In this document: positions 4,324 through 32,529 of the stretch, piece after piece
Numbering within the stretch: the stretch's first letter is position 1
How the letters are laid out: each line of letters begins with the position of its first letter
IMG/VR virus record: IMGVR_UViG_3300008255_000273
Coordinates: 1-35,777 of that record
From: a virus
Lineage: Duplodnaviria > Caudoviricetes
Length of the DNA: 35,777 bases
Reading direction: 5' to 3' (one strand)
Made by a program: the position numbers and the translations under genes
The notes under the pieces: model-generated
The model's input: the letters and a program-made list of their open reading frames with translations, nothing else
Databases searched by the model: none
Told to the model about the DNA's origin: nothing

Positions 4324-4379
4324 AATACTAGTCAATATATTACTAATAGTATTTAAATATATTTTATCTAATATAGTTT

Positions 4380-4419
4380 ACATCACAACAATCTTTATAT
4401 ACTACCTGTATTTAATAAT
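4380..4419 (+). promoter_or_regulatory. Archaeal-type promoter with conserved ACATCACAA upstream box
   Basis: ACATCACAA-N5-TTTATATA-N10-TTAATAAT. The box and TATA recur with the same spacing at 17987 and 20920. Confidence 0.7.
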
Positions 4420-4426
4420 TAATAAC

Positions 4427-4755: not shown

Positions 4756-5268
4756 TTATAATTTGGAAGGTAACCCTTCCCTTTCATAATATATGCTTAG
4801 AGTAAAAATATAATCACTTAACCTATTAACATAAGCAAAAACCACGGGTCTAAGACTTTGAACTCTTAACAACTTAGTTAAAACTCTTTCAAGTTTTCTA
4901 ATCCGAACACGCAATTCGTTTGTCTGGACCCCTTTTATAGTTTTGAACCTTTGAAAGCTATCTAACTTAATATTATGTTCGTCTATCAACTGTTCTAACT
5001 TATCTACGAAGCCTTGAGATATAACTCTTGGCAAGTTAGTTGTCTTTCCACTACTCACCTCAGCTCCTAACATATATAGAGCGTCATAGATTCTATTTAA
5101 TTGCTTAAGGGTATGTTCTGTACTCTCATAAAAGATAAGCGATTCTAGCGAAGCTATGCTCTCATCTATTAGACCGTTAATCTCAATAATTAAATCATCC
5201 TTACGAAATCTTTGACCACTAAAACTTGAAGTAGTTCCTTGGTCTCCTGTTCTTGTGTAAATGTTCAT
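4756..5268 (-). CDS. pduO: ATP:cob(I)alamin adenosyltransferase, PduO type
   Basis: IYTRTGDQGTTS, RFRKDDLIIEINGLIDE, RVRIRKLER and YVNRLSDYIFTL motifs. Confidence 0.9.
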   Translation of the reverse strand: MNIYTRTGDQGTTSSFSGQRFRKDDLIIEINGLIDESIASLESLIFYESTEHTLKQLNRIYDALYMLGAEVSSGKTTNLPRVISQGFVDKLEQLIDEHNIKLDSFQRFKTIKGVQTNELRVRIRKLERVLTKLLRVQSLRPVVFAYVNRLSDYIFTLSIYYEREGLPSKL

Positions 5269-5744: not shown

Positions 5745-5819
5745 TGGAGCTCCCGACCCGACTTGAACAGGCAACCTTCGGTTTACAAAACCGATGCTCT
5801 ACCATTGAGCCACGAAAGC
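5745..5819 (-). tRNA. tRNA-Thr(UGU), CCA encoded
   Basis: GCTTTCG TG GCTC AATGGTA GAGC A TCGGT TTTGTAA ACCGA AGGTT GCCTG TTCAAGT CGGGT CGGGAGC T CCA forms a full cloverleaf. Confidence 0.95.
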
Positions 5820-5825
5820 ATTAAA

Positions 5826-5897
5826 TACGACGGGTGAGATTCGAACTCACAAATCCAGGTTGGAAGCCTAGCAGTTTACCATTGAGCTTACCATCGT
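5826..5897 (-). tRNA. tRNA-Gly(UCC), no encoded CCA
   Basis: Acceptor stem ACGATGG/CCGTCGT, anticodon arm CTAGG CTTCCAA CCTGG, T arm GTGAG TTCGAAT CTCAC, A73 discriminator. The D stem has one mismatch. Confidence 0.9.
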
Positions 5898-5934
5898 ATG
5901 AAAAATAAAATTTATATAATTATCTAAAGACAAC

Positions 5935-16500: not shown

Positions 16501-16597
16501 TATTTATAAACCTTTTGTTTGTGTGAAGAAATAATTTAGATATATATGGTGTATTACACAAATCTTTATATACTTGTACTGTTTAATATATGGTAAA

Positions 16598-18777: not shown

Positions 18778-18864
18778 TATTATATACTACAGTATATAAA
18801 TGTTTATATATTAGTAGTGTTTAATAATAGTAGAAATGAGAAACATTTCATTAGGTGATACAAA

Positions 18865-20049: not shown

Positions 20050-20119
20050 ACGAGACAGTATTATTAATCACAGGAATAATATTCTTCGGAATGTGGATCC
20101 TAACAAACCAGAGGAAAAA

Positions 20120-20482
20120 ATGAAAACTTCACACAAAATGATAATCATGGTTGATGCAGACCTTAAAATGCCAAAAGGAAAATTAGCAGGACAAGTTGCT
20201 CATGCGGCGGTTTCCTGTGTTATTAAGGAAATCTTAAAGGGTCGAATCATACGAGTTGCTCAGTGGTTACAAACAGGTCAAAAAAAAGTAGTAGTCAAAC
20301 CTAAAACTACTTTTGATATAGATATAATTGAAATAGGTTCTAAGACAAAGGAATCAAATCCTAGTATAGTAACAATCAAGGACCTTGGAAAAACAGTATT
20401 CATCGGACCAACAGTTACTTGCTGTGCTGTAGGATTATTAAAAAATGATGATATTAGCTTGGACTCATTCAAGTTATTATAG
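20120..20482 (+). CDS. pth2: Peptidyl-tRNA hydrolase, Pth2 type
   Basis: LKMPKGKLAGQVAHA, W..TGQKKVVVK, DLGKT, T.TCCAVG, C-terminal KLL. ATG 20120 follows GAGG. Confidence 0.85.
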   Translation: MKTSHKMIIMVDADLKMPKGKLAGQVAHAAVSCVIKEILKGRIIRVAQWLQTGQKKVVVKPKTTFDIDIIEIGSKTKESNPSIVTIKDLGKTVFIGPTVTCCAVGLLKNDDISLDSFKLL

Positions 20483-20898: not shown

Positions 20899-20919
20899 TT
20901 CCCTTTTCTTTTATATACT

Positions 20920-20959
20920 ACATCACAATAATGTTTATAAAGTTTAAAGTTTTAATAAT
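20920..20959 (+). promoter_or_regulatory. ACATCACAA-box promoter
   Basis: ACATCACAA-TAATG-TTTATAAA-N10-TTAATAAT. Confidence 0.7.
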
Positions 20960-20976
20960 AGTACAGGTGGTACATA

Positions 20977-22356: not shown

Positions 22357-23502
22357 ATGAAAGATATAAAATCTATGAGTAAAGAACAGTACATCGCCTG
22401 GCGTGCAGAGAAAGTTGACATGGATGTAGAAACAGTTGCAAAAATGTGGGAAGAGTTTGAATCAGAAGCTAAAGAGATTGGACTTACTGATACTGATACT
22501 TTTGTTAAGAAAAGATTCAGTCAAGCATTTATTAAAAAAGATAAAGGATTTGGTAAATCACCAACTGTAGAAGTTGAGGTTATTCTTATTGGAATGAAAG
22601 AATCAGATTATGGTGCAGCAAACCAAATCAAAGAGGTTCTTAAAATTATTACTAACGAAGACGGAACTTTAAAAGAAAAATCTGTATTGGAAGCTGCTAG
22701 AAACCAAGGATATATTAATGAAAACATCGAACCTTTATTCCACTATGAGAACTCAAAAAACAGAAAAAATGGAACTGTCATTGACTTAAAGAAAGAAACT
22801 CAATGTGAGTTTACAGTTGTAGGTAAGCGTTTGGATAAACCAGATGAGTTTACAAAAGGAACACTGAGTATAGCAAAACATAAATTAAGTGGTATGCCTG
22901 AATTTGGAACTGTTTACAAAACAGAATTAACAGTAAGTAGTAAAAGTGATAAAGATAAAATTATTCTCTTTGGAGATGACCGAACAGTTTTCAAAAATGG
23001 AACAATTTTAAAACAAGAGCAAATGGACAGTTTGATTTCTAACTTCTTTGGAAACATTATGTTTAGTATGTCCGATCTTAAAGATGTAGCTGTAAACTAC
23101 CCTGACCCTAATGTGGAGAAGTATGATAAATATGTAATAGTTAAGGCGTGTGTAGCTGATGTGAATTTAACAAGAGAGGGGATTGGAAACAAACTACTAC
23201 TAACTGATGGTTTTGATGAAGATGCTTTCTGTGATACTTGGGTTCCAGAAAATTTTAATATTAATTTCAACACTAATGCTCAGGATATCTGGGTGTATGG
23301 GGTAATAGGGTTTGATGAAAGAAACAGTATGCCTGTAATTAATGTTTATGGATTATATGTTCCAGAAGTTTACAGACTAAAAGAACAACCAAAACCAATT
23401 TCTCCAGAGACTGTTGAAACTGTTGAGACTCCTTCGGTAGAAGAAAAGAAAGAAGAGGTTACTCCCTCCGTTAAACCCCAAACTGGAGGGTTTACTTTTT
23501 AG
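22357..23502 (+). CDS. Putative multi-OB-fold ssDNA-binding protein
   Basis: Beta-rich sequence, first large gene of the replication operon, flexible acidic tail ending GGFTF. Inferred from context only. Confidence 0.4.
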   Translation: MKDIKSMSKEQYIAWRAEKVDMDVETVAKMWEEFESEAKEIGLTDTDTFVKKRFSQAFIKKDKGFGKSPTVEVEVILIGMKESDYGAANQIKEVLKIITNEDGTLKEKSVLEAARNQGYINENIEPLFHYENSKNRKNGTVIDLKKETQCEFTVVGKRLDKPDEFTKGTLSIAKHKLSGMPEFGTVYKTELTVSSKSDKDKIILFGDDRTVFKNGTILKQEQMDSLISNFFGNIMFSMSDLKDVAVNYPDPNVEKYDKYVIVKACVADVNLTREGIGNKLLLTDGFDEDAFCDTWVPENFNINFNTNAQDIWVYGVIGFDERNSMPVINVYGLYVPEVYRLKEQPKPISPETVETVETPSVEEKKEEVTPSVKPQTGGFTF

Positions 23503-25458: not shown

Positions 25459-25468
25459 AATTTATATT

Positions 25469-25594
25469 TCTTTGTATCACCAAAGACGTGTCTCGGAAAG
25501 ACTTTAAATTTGCCCGGGTTGAGATAGCTGTGGTAGCTGATGTGAACACTCCCTAAAATAACTTAAAAAACCTGACAGGAGGGAAAGACCCCAC
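25469..25594 (+). ncRNA. Candidate structured RNA between PCNA and RFC
   Basis: GC-richer intergenic segment with several hairpins, complementary loops (TATCAC / GTGGT), and GGAAAGAC twice. Confidence 0.35.
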
Positions 25595-25613
25595 TTATTT
25601 TTATAGAGGTATC

Positions 25614-27206: not shown

Positions 27207-27357
27207 GTGTAAATGTTGTGGAAGACCTTTAAAAGCACACAGCAGTCAAGTTTTAGGTTTTGGACTAACTTGTGCAATTAAAGAAGGTTTAATTAAACCT
27301 AAAGTTAAACCTCACAAAGAAGACCATAGTATTGACTTATATACTCTAGTACAATAA
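27133..27357 (+). CDS. DUF6011-like Zn-finger protein
   Basis: CKCCGRPL...SQVLGFGLTCA; start uncertain. Confidence 0.6.
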   Translation: MDLNLLNINQNQNQKKVVSVSLASKCKCCGRPLKAHSSQVLGFGLTCAIKEGLIKPKVKPHKEDHSIDLYTLVQ

Positions 27358-27389
27358 TCTTTATATACTAGTAGTGTTTAATAAAGTGT

Positions 27390-27572: not shown

Positions 27573-27614
27573 ATAAATAGATTTATATAGTACAACTTTT
27601 TAATTTATATTAAA

Positions 27615-27668
27615 TAGTTGATAGGAGCTCACAACCCTTAACCAACTAAAATAAAAAAATTGTGAGGT
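27615..27668 (+). promoter_or_regulatory. Candidate riboswitch-like H-type pseudoknot in the queD 5' UTR
   Basis: P1 TAGTTG(27615-20)/CAACTA(27643-48); linker AAATAAAAAAA; P2 CTCACAA(27628-34)/TTGTGAG(27660-66), overlapping the GAGGT RBS; TATA at 27582. Confidence 0.55.
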
Positions 27669-27676
27669 ATTACAAA

Positions 27677-28171
27677 GTGTTAATAACAAAAAGAATTGGA
27701 ATAGACATGGGCCACCGGGTGCCTAACCATCAAAGCAAGTGTCGTCATTTTCACGGACACAGATATTCTATTGAAGTGGGAGTTGATGACAAAATTATTT
27801 CTACACCAGGAACGCCTGACGAAGGTATGGTGATTGATTTTGGTGACCTAAAACAAATTATGATGGAAGAAATAGATGCTAAATTTGACCATGGATTCTG
27901 TATGTGGAAAAATGATATGTATGCACCAGTTTTTCAAGAACTAAAAGATGGTTATAACTTTGAGTTTCAAGATGGGAGAGAGTGGAGAACCGAAGTTACA
28001 GATAAACCTTTTCAAAAAATTATCTTTGTTGATTTTATTCCAACTGCAGAAAACTTAGCTAAACATTGGTATGAACTAATTAAACCTAAGTTAGCAGAAA
28101 GAAAAATTAAAATTAAACATGTAAAGGTGTGGGAAACTCCAACAAGTACAGCAAAGTATGAGGAAGAATAA
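27677..28171 (+). CDS. queD: 6-carboxy-5,6,7,8-tetrahydropterin synthase
   Basis: GHRV..H.SKCRHFHGHRY, IDFGDLK, PTAENLA, VWETP. GTG 27677 follows GAGGT. Confidence 0.92.
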   Translation: MLITKRIGIDMGHRVPNHQSKCRHFHGHRYSIEVGVDDKIISTPGTPDEGMVIDFGDLKQIMMEEIDAKFDHGFCMWKNDMYAPVFQELKDGYNFEFQDGREWRTEVTDKPFQKIIFVDFIPTAENLAKHWYELIKPKLAERKIKIKHVKVWETPTSTAKYEEE

Positions 28172-28172
28172 A

Positions 28173-28919
28173 ATGGAAAAGCTAAATGTAAGTGAAACTT
28201 TTTATTCTCTACAAGGAGAGGGGGAGTATTGTGGATATCCAGCAGTGTTTTTTAGATTACAGAACTGCAATTTATTCTGTGGAATGCCTAAAGGTGATTT
28301 AACAAAACCATGTGATGGTTGTAAATGGGTTTGTGATACTATTGCTGTTTGGCAGAAAGGGAACTCAAAAACTTTTGATGAAATATTAGACGAGTGGGAC
28401 TCTTCCGGAATTACAAAAAATTTAGAAGACGGTGCTCACTTAGTAATTACTGGTGGAGAGCCTTTACTACAGCAAGATGCTATTGTTATTTTTATTATGT
28501 ACTTTATAGAGTTCAAAGGGTTTGTTCCTTTTATTGAAGTTGAAACAAACGGAACTATTAAACCAAGTGATGAAATGTTCACTCTTGTTGATAGATTTAA
28601 TGTGTCTGCAAAACTCTCTAATAGTGGTAACCCAAAACCAATGCGTTACAAAGAAGACGCCTTAGAATGGCATACAAATAATAACACCAGCATATTTAAG
28701 TTTGTAACTTTAGACGAAGAGGATACTGACGAAATTTTTGAAGATTTTATTAATAAGTTCAGTATCCCTAAAGATAAAATCTGGTTAATGCCAGGAGCTT
28801 ACGACCGAGAAATGCTTTGGAAGAACGGGCAGACAATTGCTGAACTTTGTAAAAAGTATGGTTTCAAAATGACAAGCAGAATGCACGTTGAGATTTGGGA
28901 CAAATTGACGGGAGTTTAG
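28173..28919 (+). CDS. queE: 7-carboxy-7-deazaguanine synthase (radical SAM)
   Basis: ETFYSLQGEG, RLQNCNLFC...WVCDT, ITGGEPLLQ, VETNG, SAKL, RMH. Confidence 0.95.
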   Translation: MEKLNVSETFYSLQGEGEYCGYPAVFFRLQNCNLFCGMPKGDLTKPCDGCKWVCDTIAVWQKGNSKTFDEILDEWDSSGITKNLEDGAHLVITGGEPLLQQDAIVIFIMYFIEFKGFVPFIEVETNGTIKPSDEMFTLVDRFNVSAKLSNSGNPKPMRYKEDALEWHTNNNTSIFKFVTLDEEDTDEIFEDFINKFSIPKDKIWLMPGAYDREMLWKNGQTIAELCKKYGFKMTSRMHVEIWDKLTGV

Positions 28920-28924
28920 AGAAA

Positions 28925-29374
28925 ATGGATTTCATAATAGGAACAAAAACCGACAGCATTAGTTCTGTTCAGGCAGAGAACGGTCAGAATAAAAAATTTA
29001 TTTCCTGGATAGAGTTTGAACAATATATGGAGGAGTTAGCAACAACTCTAATTAAAAAAACTAACATAGATTACTATAAAAATATCTACGGTTTACCTAG
29101 AGGAGGCTTAATTGTAGCAGTTTGGCTAAGTCACAGATTAAATAAACCTCTTATTTTAAGTGAATCTGATATCGAGAAAGATACTCTAATTGTTGATGAT
29201 ATTGCTGATAGTGGAGAAACCATGTTTGCATTATTAACTAGAGTTAAAAAAGTAACAAGACCAACGATAGTGTGTATTGTTCATAAAGAACACACTTCTT
29301 TTATTAAACCTGAGTTTGCAGCAATTACTACAAGGTCAGATGATTGGATTGTATTCCCATGGGAGGTAAAATAA
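28925..29374 (+). CDS. Type I purine phosphoribosyltransferase (Gpt-like)
   Basis: GLPRGG, PRPP loop LIVDDIADSGET, WIVFPWE. Confidence 0.9.
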   Translation: MDFIIGTKTDSISSVQAENGQNKKFISWIEFEQYMEELATTLIKKTNIDYYKNIYGLPRGGLIVAVWLSHRLNKPLILSESDIEKDTLIVDDIADSGETMFALLTRVKKVTRPTIVCIVHKEHTSFIKPEFAAITTRSDDWIVFPWEVK

Positions 29375-29375
29375 A

Positions 29376-30044
29376 ATGAGTTTAGACATAACAAAAGTAG
29401 ATGGAATTACAGGTTATAAGGTTAATCAGTATTTATTAAAGAAAGGAGTGGAAACTCCTAAGTCTGGTTTAAGATTTAGTAAGAAGGAACAAATTGAAGT
29501 GATTAAAAATAATTTCACCCAAATAATGCAGGTTATGGGTTTAGATTTAACAGATGACAGTCTAATTGAAACTCCCAAACGTGTTGCAAAAATGTTTGTC
29601 AATGAAATCTTTTGGGGTTTAGACTATCAAAACTTTCCTAAGATTACAGTTGTAGATAACAAAATGAAATATGACGAGATGGTTTTTGAAAAGAACATTA
29701 ATGTCATGAGTGATTGTGAGCACCATTTTAGAACAATTTTTGGAAAGGCCCACGTAGCTTATATTCCAAATAAAAAAGTTCTAGGACTAAGCAAACTAAA
29801 TCGTATAGTAGAGTTTTTTTCAAGAAGACCTCAAATTCAAGAACGACTAACTGAACAAATATTTTATACTCTTGAATATTTATTAGGAACTAAAAATATT
29901 GCTGTAGTTATTGAAGCAGAGCATATGTGTGTAAAGCAAAGGGGAGTTGAGGATGTTGGAAGTTCTACAGTAACCAGTAAATTAGGAGGCTCTTTCAAGA
30001 AACGTCCTGAGCTTCGTGCTGAATTTATGGGGTTAACAAAATGA
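29376..30044 (+). CDS. folE: GTP cyclohydrolase I
   Basis: ETPKRVAKM, CEHH, GLSKLNRIV, QIQERLT, HMCVKQRG. Confidence 0.97.
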   Translation: MSLDITKVDGITGYKVNQYLLKKGVETPKSGLRFSKKEQIEVIKNNFTQIMQVMGLDLTDDSLIETPKRVAKMFVNEIFWGLDYQNFPKITVVDNKMKYDEMVFEKNINVMSDCEHHFRTIFGKAHVAYIPNKKVLGLSKLNRIVEFFSRRPQIQERLTEQIFYTLEYLLGTKNIAVVIEAEHMCVKQRGVEDVGSSTVTSKLGGSFKKRPELRAEFMGLTK

Positions 30045-30724
30045 AACCAGTAAGAACAAATATTCATGGACTAGACGTAATTATGAGACACGATTATATT
30101 GGAGAAATGAATAACTTACAGAAATATATAAAATTTTCTGTAGAATTTATTGATAATTTTATTAAAAAAAATAAACATGATATTAAAAGTGTTTTATGTG
30201 TAGGTTGTGGAGATGGGTATGAAGTAAAATTATTTAAAGACTTAGGGTATATCTGTGTAGGTATAGATGCTTTTCCTGTCGAGGACTACGGTTTAGTTCA
30301 TGGAATAGATATATTCAAAGCCAGTTTTAGTAACTTTAGTGACTTGACAGGAAAAAACTCTTGGGATTTAGTTTTTGTTAACCACTCTCATGAACACACT
30401 CCTAACGCTTATGGACTAACTCACGAGATATCAAAAGTATTAAAGAAAGGTGGATTAGTATTTGACGACGTTCCTTATGCTAACGACGATTGGGGTTGGA
30501 GTATTTCTCATTCAACCACTCATTTTAGTCTATTTACTCCTCCCTTCATGCGAACAATGTTTGAGAGATATGGTTTTGAAACTAAATATATAGACCTACA
30601 TGAAATGATACCAGTAAGAAACCCTAGATGTAGAGAGATTATTTATATTGGACAGTACACTGGAGAAGTTCCAGAAGAGTACAAAGGTTTTATTGGAACA
30701 ATGGAGGGATATAACAATGAATAA
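30041..30724 (+). CDS. Class I SAM-dependent methyltransferase
   Basis: VLCVGCGDG, GIDA, WDLVFVNHSHEH, LKKGG; start and stop overlap folE and queC. Confidence 0.85.
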   Translation: MKPVRTNIHGLDVIMRHDYIGEMNNLQKYIKFSVEFIDNFIKKNKHDIKSVLCVGCGDGYEVKLFKDLGYICVGIDAFPVEDYGLVHGIDIFKASFSNFSDLTGKNSWDLVFVNHSHEHTPNAYGLTHEISKVLKKGGLVFDDVPYANDDWGWSISHSTTHFSLFTPPFMRTMFERYGFETKYIDLHEMIPVRNPRCREIIYIGQYTGEVPEEYKGFIGTMEGYNNE

Positions 30725-31508
30725 ACACAAATCAATGGAAAAGAGATTAGTTATTATGTTAAGCGGAGGACTAGACTCTAGTGTAGCTTATCATTACGCT
30801 TTAAATAAAGGATTTAATAAAGACGAAATTGTTTGTATTTGGTTTGATTTAAACCAGCCATATAATACTAAAGAAAAAGAAAGTTTAGATAAAATTGGAA
30901 TTCCTTACGAAACAATTAAACTAGATTTGATTCAAGAGAAATTTAACAATATTCCTACCAAAGACCACCCTAATCAAATTATTCCTGGGCGTAATTTAAT
31001 CATGGCTACAATTGCTGCAAGTTTCGGAGAACGAATTTGGATGATGGCGTTAGACGGAGAGACACACATGAACACGATAGAGCGCGATAAATCAACTAAG
31101 TTCTTTCAAGACACTACTAACTTGCTTACATATATCTTCAACGTGAAGCGAGATATAACTGTTCTGGAGAGTCCTTTTATGAACATGAGTAAAACAGACA
31201 TTGTTAAGTGGGCTATTGACCATGGAGTATCCGAAGAATTTTTAAAGAATACTTCTACCTGCTATGACGAGAGTTTACACAACTGTGGAGAATGTGGAAC
31301 TTGTTTTAAACGTTGGATTTCATTCAAGAACAATGGAGTGGAGGAAGAGTACACAAAAAATCCGTGGGAATCAGACGATGCTAAAAAACTTATTGCTAAC
31401 TATAAAGAAGCATTTATAAACAATGACTTCTCACATTATACAAAGAAGAGAATCGAGGAAACTTTTGAAGCTCTTAAAAAACAAGGTGTAATGAATGACA
31501 ATAATTAA
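30717..31508 (+). CDS. queC: QueC-family ATP pyrophosphatase (atypical 7-cyano-7-deazaguanine synthase)
   Basis: PP-loop SGGLDS, IPGRN, SPF...SKTDIV, TCY....CGECGTCFKR; YPDCR replaced by ERDKS. ATG 30717 follows GGAGGG. Confidence 0.85.
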   Translation: MNKHKSMEKRLVIMLSGGLDSSVAYHYALNKGFNKDEIVCIWFDLNQPYNTKEKESLDKIGIPYETIKLDLIQEKFNNIPTKDHPNQIIPGRNLIMATIAASFGERIWMMALDGETHMNTIERDKSTKFFQDTTNLLTYIFNVKRDITVLESPFMNMSKTDIVKWAIDHGVSEEFLKNTSTCYDESLHNCGECGTCFKRWISFKNNGVEEEYTKNPWESDDAKKLIANYKEAFINNDFSHYTKKRIEETFEALKKQGVMNDNN

Positions 31509-32529
31509 ATATGCTTCGGCAGGTTGTGAATCCAGATATTTACAACCTAATTTAAATTTTGGTGCTTTCCTATCTAAGTGTGTCTTAATTAATGCTACTG
31601 CGTTAAACAATAAAAGAGATAGTCCTTTACTTAGTAAAATCAACGAAATGAAAAAAAATGGGTTTATTATTCTTGTTGATAGTGGTGGATTTCAATTAGC
31701 TACAGGAGCGTGTAAAGATTTAAATGTAGGGGAAATTATAGAAATTCAAAATTTGTATGGAGATATAGGTATGATGTTAGATGTTCCTCCTATCAAGGGA
31801 GAACTTAACTGGAAATACTTTAGTGAGTGTTTAGAGGAAACTAGAATAAATTTACACAAAGCTAAAAATTATAAAAAGAATTTTAAATATTACTTCGTGC
31901 TTCAAGGTGAAACTTTTGAAACATTAGATACTTGGTATAATGAACTTAACCATATAGATACTTTTGATGGGGTTTCGTTAAAAGGGTTAACTTTAGAAAA
32001 AATGTTGCTTGCAGCAATGTACGCTATTGATAAAACAGATTATAAAAATTTTCACTTCTTAGGAGTAAGTTCAACTAATAGACAGATTTTAATTGATTAT
32101 TTGTTTAAAGGAATGGACGACAGCTATTTTGTGACTTATGATTCAACGACTCCTGTGATGTTAGGTAAGAGTAAAATGATGAAGTTTCCTTTCTCAGACG
32201 TGACATTATCTTTTTCAAAAGTAAAAAATTTCGATGATTTTAAAGATGTTCTTCAAGTTGAAAATGATTTTAACTCAATTATCTCCCTTAATGTATTAAA
32301 TATTAATTTACAGCAATTGTTTATTAAAAATATGGTTCATGACCGAAAGTTATTAGAGGATGCATTTTCAAAATATAAACTAAAACCTTACTTTGATATA
32401 ATAGATTATTTTTTAGCTAATGGAAGAGATATGAAGAAAACTATAATAAAGTATAGTTCCTATTTTGAAGATAAGATTCCTTCTGGAAACACTGGAGTCA
32501 AACAAGCATCACTGTTAGGGGAGTTTTAA
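31495..32529 (+). CDS. dpdA: TGT-superfamily guanine transglycosylase, DpdA-like
   Basis: VDSGGFQ, MLDVPP, VLQG, FHFLG, YDST; no C-terminal Cys Zn site. Context points to a DNA substrate. Confidence 0.75.
   Translation: MTIIKYASAGCESRYLQPNLNFGAFLSKCVLINATALNNKRDSPLLSKINEMKKNGFIILVDSGGFQLATGACKDLNVGEIIEIQNLYGDIGMMLDVPPIKGELNWKYFSECLEETRINLHKAKNYKKNFKYYFVLQGETFETLDTWYNELNHIDTFDGVSLKGLTLEKMLLAAMYAIDKTDYKNFHFLGVSSTNRQILIDYLFKGMDDSYFVTYDSTTPVMLGKSKMMKFPFSDVTLSFSKVKNFDDFKDVLQVENDFNSIISLNVLNINLQQLFIKNMVHDRKLLEDAFSKYKLKPYFDIIDYFLANGRDMKKTIIKYSSYFEDKIPSGNTGVKQASLLGEF

Follow-up and report, generated by a model that had tools for sequence, protein, structure and literature searches.

This analysis addressed the question of whether the short leader of a viral queD gene holds a metabolite-sensing RNA and, if so, to which known class it is related. 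The window, meaning the whole stretch of DNA analysed, is the complete IMG/VR record IMGVR_UViG_3300008255_000273 (Caudoviricetes; 35,777 nt), which has a G+C content of 32% and is estimated to be 25% complete; metagenome runs from a cold spring and an aquifer contain its DNA. A preliminary description had proposed that the ribosome-binding site of a deazaguanine operon in an archaeal virus is buried in a pseudoknot akin to the preQ1-I riboswitch. The record is likely that of an archaeal virus, judging from its TATA promoters with leaderless starts and its archaeal-type replication genes, and the best matches of RFC and Pth2, which are archaeal, agree with the earlier assignment. The window also encodes a terminase, head proteins, a clamp loader (RFC), a PCNA-fold clamp, Pth2 and a family A polymerase, the last adjoining the archaeal-type clamp loader. 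A cobalamin adenosyltransferase, tRNA-Thr, tRNA-Gly and Pth2 are present (4756-5268, 5745-5898, 20093-20482); an Rfam scan of the window returned two tRNAs only, and a second scan one chance snoRNA match on the opposite strand. The tetranucleotide GATC is strongly depleted (5 observed, 66 expected from trinucleotides), with other tested 4-base palindromes near expectation, which suggests a host defence directed at GATC. The 155-nt gap before the clamp-loader gene (25459-25613) is G+C-richer and has an A tract and a purine-rich block, but it has no Rfam match and its fold is not better than those of shuffles (z +1.17).

The operon downstream of the pseudoknot was supported by family matches, from queD through the dpdA-like gene (Table 1). 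Reading frames overlap between queD and queE and along folE, the methyltransferase gene, queC and dpdA. The start of queD is the GTG at 27677, and the consensus start is MLITK among 40 aligned QueD proteins, including that of the window. For the DpdA-like protein no close relatives were found, the search returning its own cluster only. By its gene content, queD-queE-PRT-folE-MTase-queC-dpdA-like is a known kind of DNA 7-deazaguanine cluster. According to the consulted part of a preprint on such viral clusters (bioRxiv 10.1101/2023.04.13.536721), those of phage CAjan and halovirus HVTV-1 have in common with the window the set FolE, QueD, QueE, QueC and DpdA, beside DNA polymerase. The cluster of the window differs in its extra class I methyltransferase and phosphoribosyltransferase and in the absence of queF from the window, which is about 25% of the genome. 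Since queC is present and queF was not found there, preQ0 is the likely pathway product, and a 7-deazaguanine is likely the base that such viruses put into their own DNA. The methyltransferase, which like the purine phosphoribosyltransferase lies inside the cluster, differs from the DUF3109-type DpdM treated in the same preprint, and it could give rise to a new base derivative.

The TATA box at 27582 had been taken to direct a start near 27611-27615, and the promoter spacing of the window, which gives a start at about 27612, bears this out. The TTTATATA box sits 30 nt upstream of the ATG in three leaderless genes (27360+, 14207- and 12838-), 31-34 nt upstream of several other genes, and 40-58 nt upstream where a Shine-Dalgarno sequence (SD) follows. 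A second TATA candidate, TTTATATT at 27604, was rejected, as it deviates from the window's promoter consensus. The predicted leader of 65 nt fills the space from start to SD and is the longest among the assignable SD-led promoters. Five similar 53-nt promoters share a block upstream of TATA (4371-4423, 16542-16594, 18780-18832, 20911-20963 and 27337-27389), and this family is likely one temporal class or marks an activator site.

Table 1. Features of the queD leader and the operon that follows it (window coordinates)
Feature	Position	Strand	Remarks
Operon promoter TATA box TTTATATA	27582..27589	+	predicted start ~27612
DNA palindrome, arms 11/12 bp	27593..27620	.	spans predicted start; right arm is the P1 5' strand
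P1a 5' strand TAGTTG	27615..27620	+	G27620 closes helix
L1 region AUAGGAG	27621..27627	+	A27621 at place of preQ1-I conserved U
P2 anti-Shine-Dalgarno strand CTCACAA	27628..27634	+	7 perfect pairs with 27660-66
L2 region CCCUUAAC	27635..27642	+	AC immediately before P1 3' strand
P1a 3' strand CAACTA	27643..27648	+	pairs with 27615-20, G27620-C27643
A-rich linker L3 AAATAAAAAAA	27649..27659	+	11 nt; without archaeal-motif CCC, without preQ1-I CUA
P2 3' strand and Shine-Dalgarno	27660..27668	+	TTGTGAG 27660-66 overlaps GTGAGGT 27662-68
Local alternative hairpin	27660..27675	+	6 bp, -3.4 kcal/mol; also covers SD
queD	27677..28171	+	PF01242, phrog_2389
queE	28158..28919	+	phrog_2076, E 2e-57
Xanthine/guanine phosphoribosyltransferase-like gene	28928..29374	+	PF00156; NF006613 below cut-off
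folE	29376..30044	+	TIGR00063 above cut-off
SAM-dependent methyltransferase	30041..30724	+	PF13489
queC	30717..31508	+	PF06508
TGT-fold transglycosylase, likely DpdA	31495..32529	+	weak PF01702; Atlas neighbours are viral TGT-like and DpdA clusters

All of the elements described earlier, from the TATA box through both strands of each helix, the linker and the SD to the GTG start, were found at the positions claimed. Apart from P1a (6 bp) and P2 (7 bp) the leader contains no perfect helix of at least 5 bp; the loop is 22 nt long, and the whole RNA element is shorter than 60 nt. The SD (GAGGT) has a spacing to the start codon that is usual for this virus. The suggested AGG/CCT mini-stem also held up: P1b, AGG at 27623-25 with CCU at 27636-38, occurs in the minimum-energy fold, and with it the knot assumes a classic geometry, in which L1 is 2 nt, P2 is 7 bp, L2 is 1 nt and L3 is 11 nt. 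The local hairpin at 27660-75 was missed in the preliminary description. As it covers the SD too, hardly any of the nested ensemble leaves the SD unpaired: either P2 or the local hairpin nearly always forms, and no open SD state is evident. An alternative pairing of GUUG with 27632-35 or 27638-42 was considered as an on-state and rejected, its stability being insufficient at 37 C (-1.4 to +0.3 kcal/mol) and slightly better at 15 C, and a 7-codon UUG frame in the leader was set aside as unsupported. Recognition of a kink-turn requires tandem G-A on the 3' strand; the leader's 3' strand is without it, and this candidate was rejected as well.

The burial of the SD in a pseudoknot upstream of queD was borne out by shuffling, which places it beyond chance. 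When shuffling left the SD end in place, 0 of 3000 sequences gave a perfect 6+7-bp knot over the SD, 18 of 3000 gave a 5+7 knot and 136 a 5+5 knot; when the whole leader was shuffled, 8-11 of 3000 reached the perfect 6+7 knot. No shuffle equalled the leader in an energy-type score (0 of 1000 under each of two nulls), by which it ranks first among 51 gene leaders of the window, and a null matched for geometry gave 11 of 20,000 (p ~5e-4, the site having been fixed beforehand by gene context). Among 144 distinct QueD leaders it ranks sixth, the five higher ones having 40-65% G+C. These values, and the leader's separate resemblance to a motif that goes with the same pathway, speak against chance, under which an ordinary SD in an AT-rich leader would happen to be paired and would have been singled out for the genes behind it. 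That explanation, which we consider improbable though worth keeping in the balance, draws on the 73 of 4202 window tiles, mostly AT-rich, that contain some 6+7 knot, on the 0.4-5% obtained under looser criteria with the SD end fixed, on a nested fold that is by itself ordinary (z -1.19), on the fact that no conservation was seen, and on the very large number of DNA stretches that were screened.

Kinship with preQ1-I, to which the preliminary description leaned, was not supported. The Rfam search that it had suggested gave no match to RF00522 at the site, either at the gathering cut-off or at E<=10 (the record's best, 11.7 bits, lies elsewhere), and neither did RF01054 (preQ1-II), RF02680 (preQ1-III) or RF00521 (SAM-II), each run alone at E<=10. 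As set out in the part of a review that was consulted, preQ1-I requires a G-C floor, a specificity C, an A-rich L3 and a U directly after P1, and is recorded from bacteria only (PMC11625349). The leader has the H-type knot before que genes, the G-C floor, the specificity C and the A-rich L3; at the U6 position it has A27621, or A27626 in the register of the inner stem, whereas UUC follows P1 in all 8 RF00522-type matches with E<=0.001. A preQ1-I profile, built from 10 of 13 fetched matches with the three weakest or redundant ones excluded, gave the leader a score matched by 232 of 2000 sequences of a structure-preserving null, and 44 window sites score as high.

The leader shares with preQ1-I (RF00522; types I-III) an H-type knot placed ahead of que genes, the G-C floor, an AC in front of the P1 3' strand, the A-rich L3 and an SD within P2. 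It differs in that P1 is not followed by UU(C), the CUA tail is missing, the loop has 22 nt and an inner stem, and P2 has 7 bp. The C said to precede the 3' strand of P1 is there (A27641 C27642), and of the comparison drawn with the preQ1-I L3 the A-rich linker stands and the CUA does not. PreQ1-II, preQ1-III and SAM-II are likewise SD-burying pseudoknots, preQ1-II with a long anti-SD helix; the leader has no P4 hairpin and is about half the size of preQ1-II or preQ1-III. That the leader is a genuine preQ1-I riboswitch whose loop has expanded is highly improbable: the G-C closing pair, A-rich L3, SD in P2 and an AC placed as in types II and III (PMC11625349, in the part consulted) speak for it, but the null results, the A at U6 and the constant UUC speak against, as does the statement in the consulted part of the cluster preprint that archaeal cells make preQ0 and archaeosine, not preQ1 (bioRxiv 10.1101/2023.04.13.536721).

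A closer counterpart than preQ1-I is a pseudoknot in leaders of queT in archaeal cells. A strongly conserved leader was found in 9 of 30 Thermoproteota QueT loci, and the motif pattern matched 57 of 401 Thermoproteota genomes, where the controls gave 6 matches. QueT lay behind the motif in 28 of 29 downstream frames tested, and five more copies occurred among 60 leaders chosen for absence of the pattern. Rfam held no family for any of the three motif copies tested, and no description of this pseudoknot was found in the mainly open-access literature searched. It may be an archaeal 7-deazaguanine riboswitch. Its P1 covaries at the outer pairs, and the inner P1 pairs are the same in all 36 of the 36 members compared, including one from a locus with 28% G+C; this invariance is inflated because 36 of the 44 members were selected by a pattern containing those letters.

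In place and build the viral leader is similar. The order P1, purine-rich L1, anti-SD, CC-x-UU, P1 3' strand, A tract and SD is common to both, both precede 7-deazaguanine genes, and in both the anti-SD pairs with the SD of those genes. Of 44 members, 27 have a loop of 21-23 nt (range 18-27), 42 a P2 of 6-8 bp (range 5-9), 30 an L1 of 7-9 nt and 31 an L2 of 7-8 nt (mostly 7); the viral values of 22, 7, 7 and 8 are within these dimensions. The 22-nt loop and long P2 that had been listed as departures from preQ1-I are the normal proportions of the archaeal pseudoknot. The motif was represented by alignments A4 and A5 and covariance models R2 and R3, and two covariance models align the viral leader in register over 27614-27674, with P1 on P1 and SD on SD. 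By a hand count, 13 of the 23 near-invariant motif letters are identical in the viral leader, 5 are changed with pairing kept and 5 are lost, and 3 nt are inserted. The swaps that keep pairing, two in P1 and one in P2, are from G-C to A-U in this 32% G+C genome. Among the letters lost are the G that follows P1 in the motif and its CCC behind the A tract. L1 is GUAGGUG in five motif members against the viral AUAGGAG, and the motif's L2 has CCGUU without the viral 3-nt AAC. Differences extend to the inner P1, which is A-U in the virus and invariantly C-G in the motif, and to setting, the viral copy standing before queD and the motif before queT in cells.

Scores for this likeness were mixed. The viral leader reached 1.6 and 0.0 bits against 36-81 (35.8-81.4) for members, outside the members' range; five unrelated window sites outscore it under each covariance model, at least 10 window sites lie above it with a weighted profile, and background DNA yields 4 to 22 equal-scoring sites per window length. 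In profile likeness it was equalled by 0 of 600 dinucleotide shuffles, by 3 of 2000 sequences of a null keeping structure, anti-SD and A tract, and by 33 of 3000 with sequence weighting, so that kinship has a p of ~0.001-0.01. The viral leader thus resembles the archaeal queT-leader motif in build and place and is not a member by sequence.

Several other sites came to light with the motif models. Their best match in the window (23453-23498, + strand; 15.8 bits, E 0.006 with R3) resembles the 3' half and has no P1; it falls in the last codons of a 381-aa gene and forms a hairpin followed by a U run, immediately ahead of the SD of the next gene, and is probably a chance match or else a terminator. 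An extended queT leader (L538:83-185 and L574:84-190, and upstream of queT in L256) has a short P1 hairpin, a structured insert of ~45 nt, an A tract and an SD, and may be a tandem or second class. A partial motif with P1 and inner letters, a plain A tract and no SD strand (21 bits) precedes a short-chain reductase gene at L437:1501-1555, in a genome of the phylum of genome G001.

Further copies of the viral element were sought widely. The closest QueD proteins are at most 70% identical. The element was absent from the leaders of 47 viral QueD loci and from 154 metagenome or genome QueD leaders (155 of 156 loci covered, one being the window itself), and no orthologous leader or strain variant was found in the QueD loci and sequencing runs searched. 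Contigs from three DNA runs, of which two may be the source of the record, carry the leader without a difference, and four low-share runs were without coverage of it; no RNA run was listed among those containing this DNA, and the one RNA run searched yielded no sequence. Viral kin traced through QueE amounted to one weak locus, those through DNA polymerase to none, and GenBank phages gave no DNA match. Pattern scans of viral contigs returned 63 matches (11 + 12 + 40), none near a que gene: the 12 of the tight pattern included none with an anti-SD or que genes, and the 40 of the hybrid pattern none with que genes. A loose pattern was swamped by chance matches and discarded, and so was a single-sequence model, R1, whose weak matches in 21 of 151 genomes of G001's phylum were noise-like; neither 13 QueC loci nor another 60 queT leaders gave a match to R1. 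Model R2 gave weak matches in 2 of 151 and 6 of 151 genomes of two other archaeal phyla, of which 4 were inspected and none was established before a que gene, and no intermediate was found in these 151 (incomplete) genomes of each phylum. R3 matched none of 5 viral records with a close QueD. In the low-G+C contigs L058, L060, L064, L072, L078 and L094 the same small gene lies upstream of queD, and the 30-50 nt that separate the two contain a G+C hairpin, behind which there is mostly a T run; this hairpin is terminator-like and unrelated to the viral knot. What emerges is a credible but single and diverged candidate.

A feature overlooked in the preliminary description is the DNA palindrome at 27593-27620. 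It is the longest at the 20 promoters examined (the next has 8), occurs in 2 of 2000 shuffles and is about as rare as the pseudoknot. Archaeal repressors frequently bind just downstream of TATA. Control could accordingly lie in the DNA, with a repressor on the palindrome and on further half-sites, the P1 helix being a by-product of the repeats; a pentamer of these repeats does occur again at 27643. Such an operator would leave P2 and the A tract unexplained, its half-site pair has no second copy within the window, and the repeat may instead serve as an RNA hairpin, predicted to sequester the P1 5' strand and so remove P1 in read-through transcripts from the promoter at 27360. We regard control of this kind as quite improbable.

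A real SD-burying structure need not sense a small molecule. It could be a constitutive damper, the site of an RNA-binding protein encoded by the operon or by the host, or what is left of a host switch that was acquired together with the genes and has since decayed, any of which would suit a knot that is beyond chance yet lacks the letters most conserved in both ligand-type families, and an SD that is paired in both predicted states. Against this, an A-rich linker, a G-C floor and an AC before the P1 3' strand are typical of ligand pockets in the consulted part of the review (PMC11625349), no RNA-binding regulator was identified in the window, and 13 perfect pairs surviving three pair swaps would be unexpected in a relic. 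This explanation is somewhat unlikely, if a serious one.

Of the riboswitch reading as first proposed, the promoter, the operon and the SD-burying knot stand and the preQ1-I kinship does not. The explanation to which we tentatively incline, while holding it short of probable, is that the queD leader is a translational feedback off-switch, likely stabilised by preQ0, with the archaeal queT-leader pseudoknot as its likely ancestor. It is favoured because the knot is beyond chance and fills the space from start to SD, and because an archaeal motif with the same build exists, on which the leader aligns in register. It is weakened because core letters are lost, no open state is clear and no second copy was found, and because an equally rare DNA palindrome uses the P1 5' strand. 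The rarity of riboswitches in phages and archaea weakens it further: as had been stated at the outset, they are almost absent from phages and sparse in archaea in the consulted part of a 2017 survey, which names TPP, fluoride, FMN, Mg2+-I and guanidine-II for archaea and no preQ1 class (PMC5473149).

In such an off-switch, transcription would start at about 27612, P1 would form first as the leader is made, and the A-rich linker would dock along it. PreQ0 bound at the internal loop or at the helix junction, with C27642 as the obvious ligand reader, would then shift the balance from the weak local hairpin to P2 and keep the SD closed. The overlapping reading frames would pass the shut-off to the downstream genes, and GTP would be spared once there is enough of the modified base for the viral DNA. 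A more specific and speculative version, which we hold to be unlikely, is that an archaeal virus captured a 7-deazaguanine riboswitch of an archaeal class and remodelled it, in A-U-rich form, to meter synthesis of its DNA base; the pocket may then read ADG or a methylated derivative, and the read-through hairpin would let some transcripts bypass the switch.

No riboswitch in an archaeal virus or in a viral deazaguanine cluster was found in the mainly open-access literature searched, and the word 'riboswitch' has 0 occurrences in the consulted part of the paper on viral deazaguanine clusters (bioRxiv 10.1101/2023.04.13.536721). If the off-switch is real, it would be the first such switch for archaeal viruses within that literature. 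Binding of a 7-deazaguanine by the leader would mean that a viral DNA-modification pathway is under metabolite feedback, and would extend the archaeal motif to viruses. It would also provide a natural variant that keeps the fold and swaps the core, and so tell which letters make the pocket.
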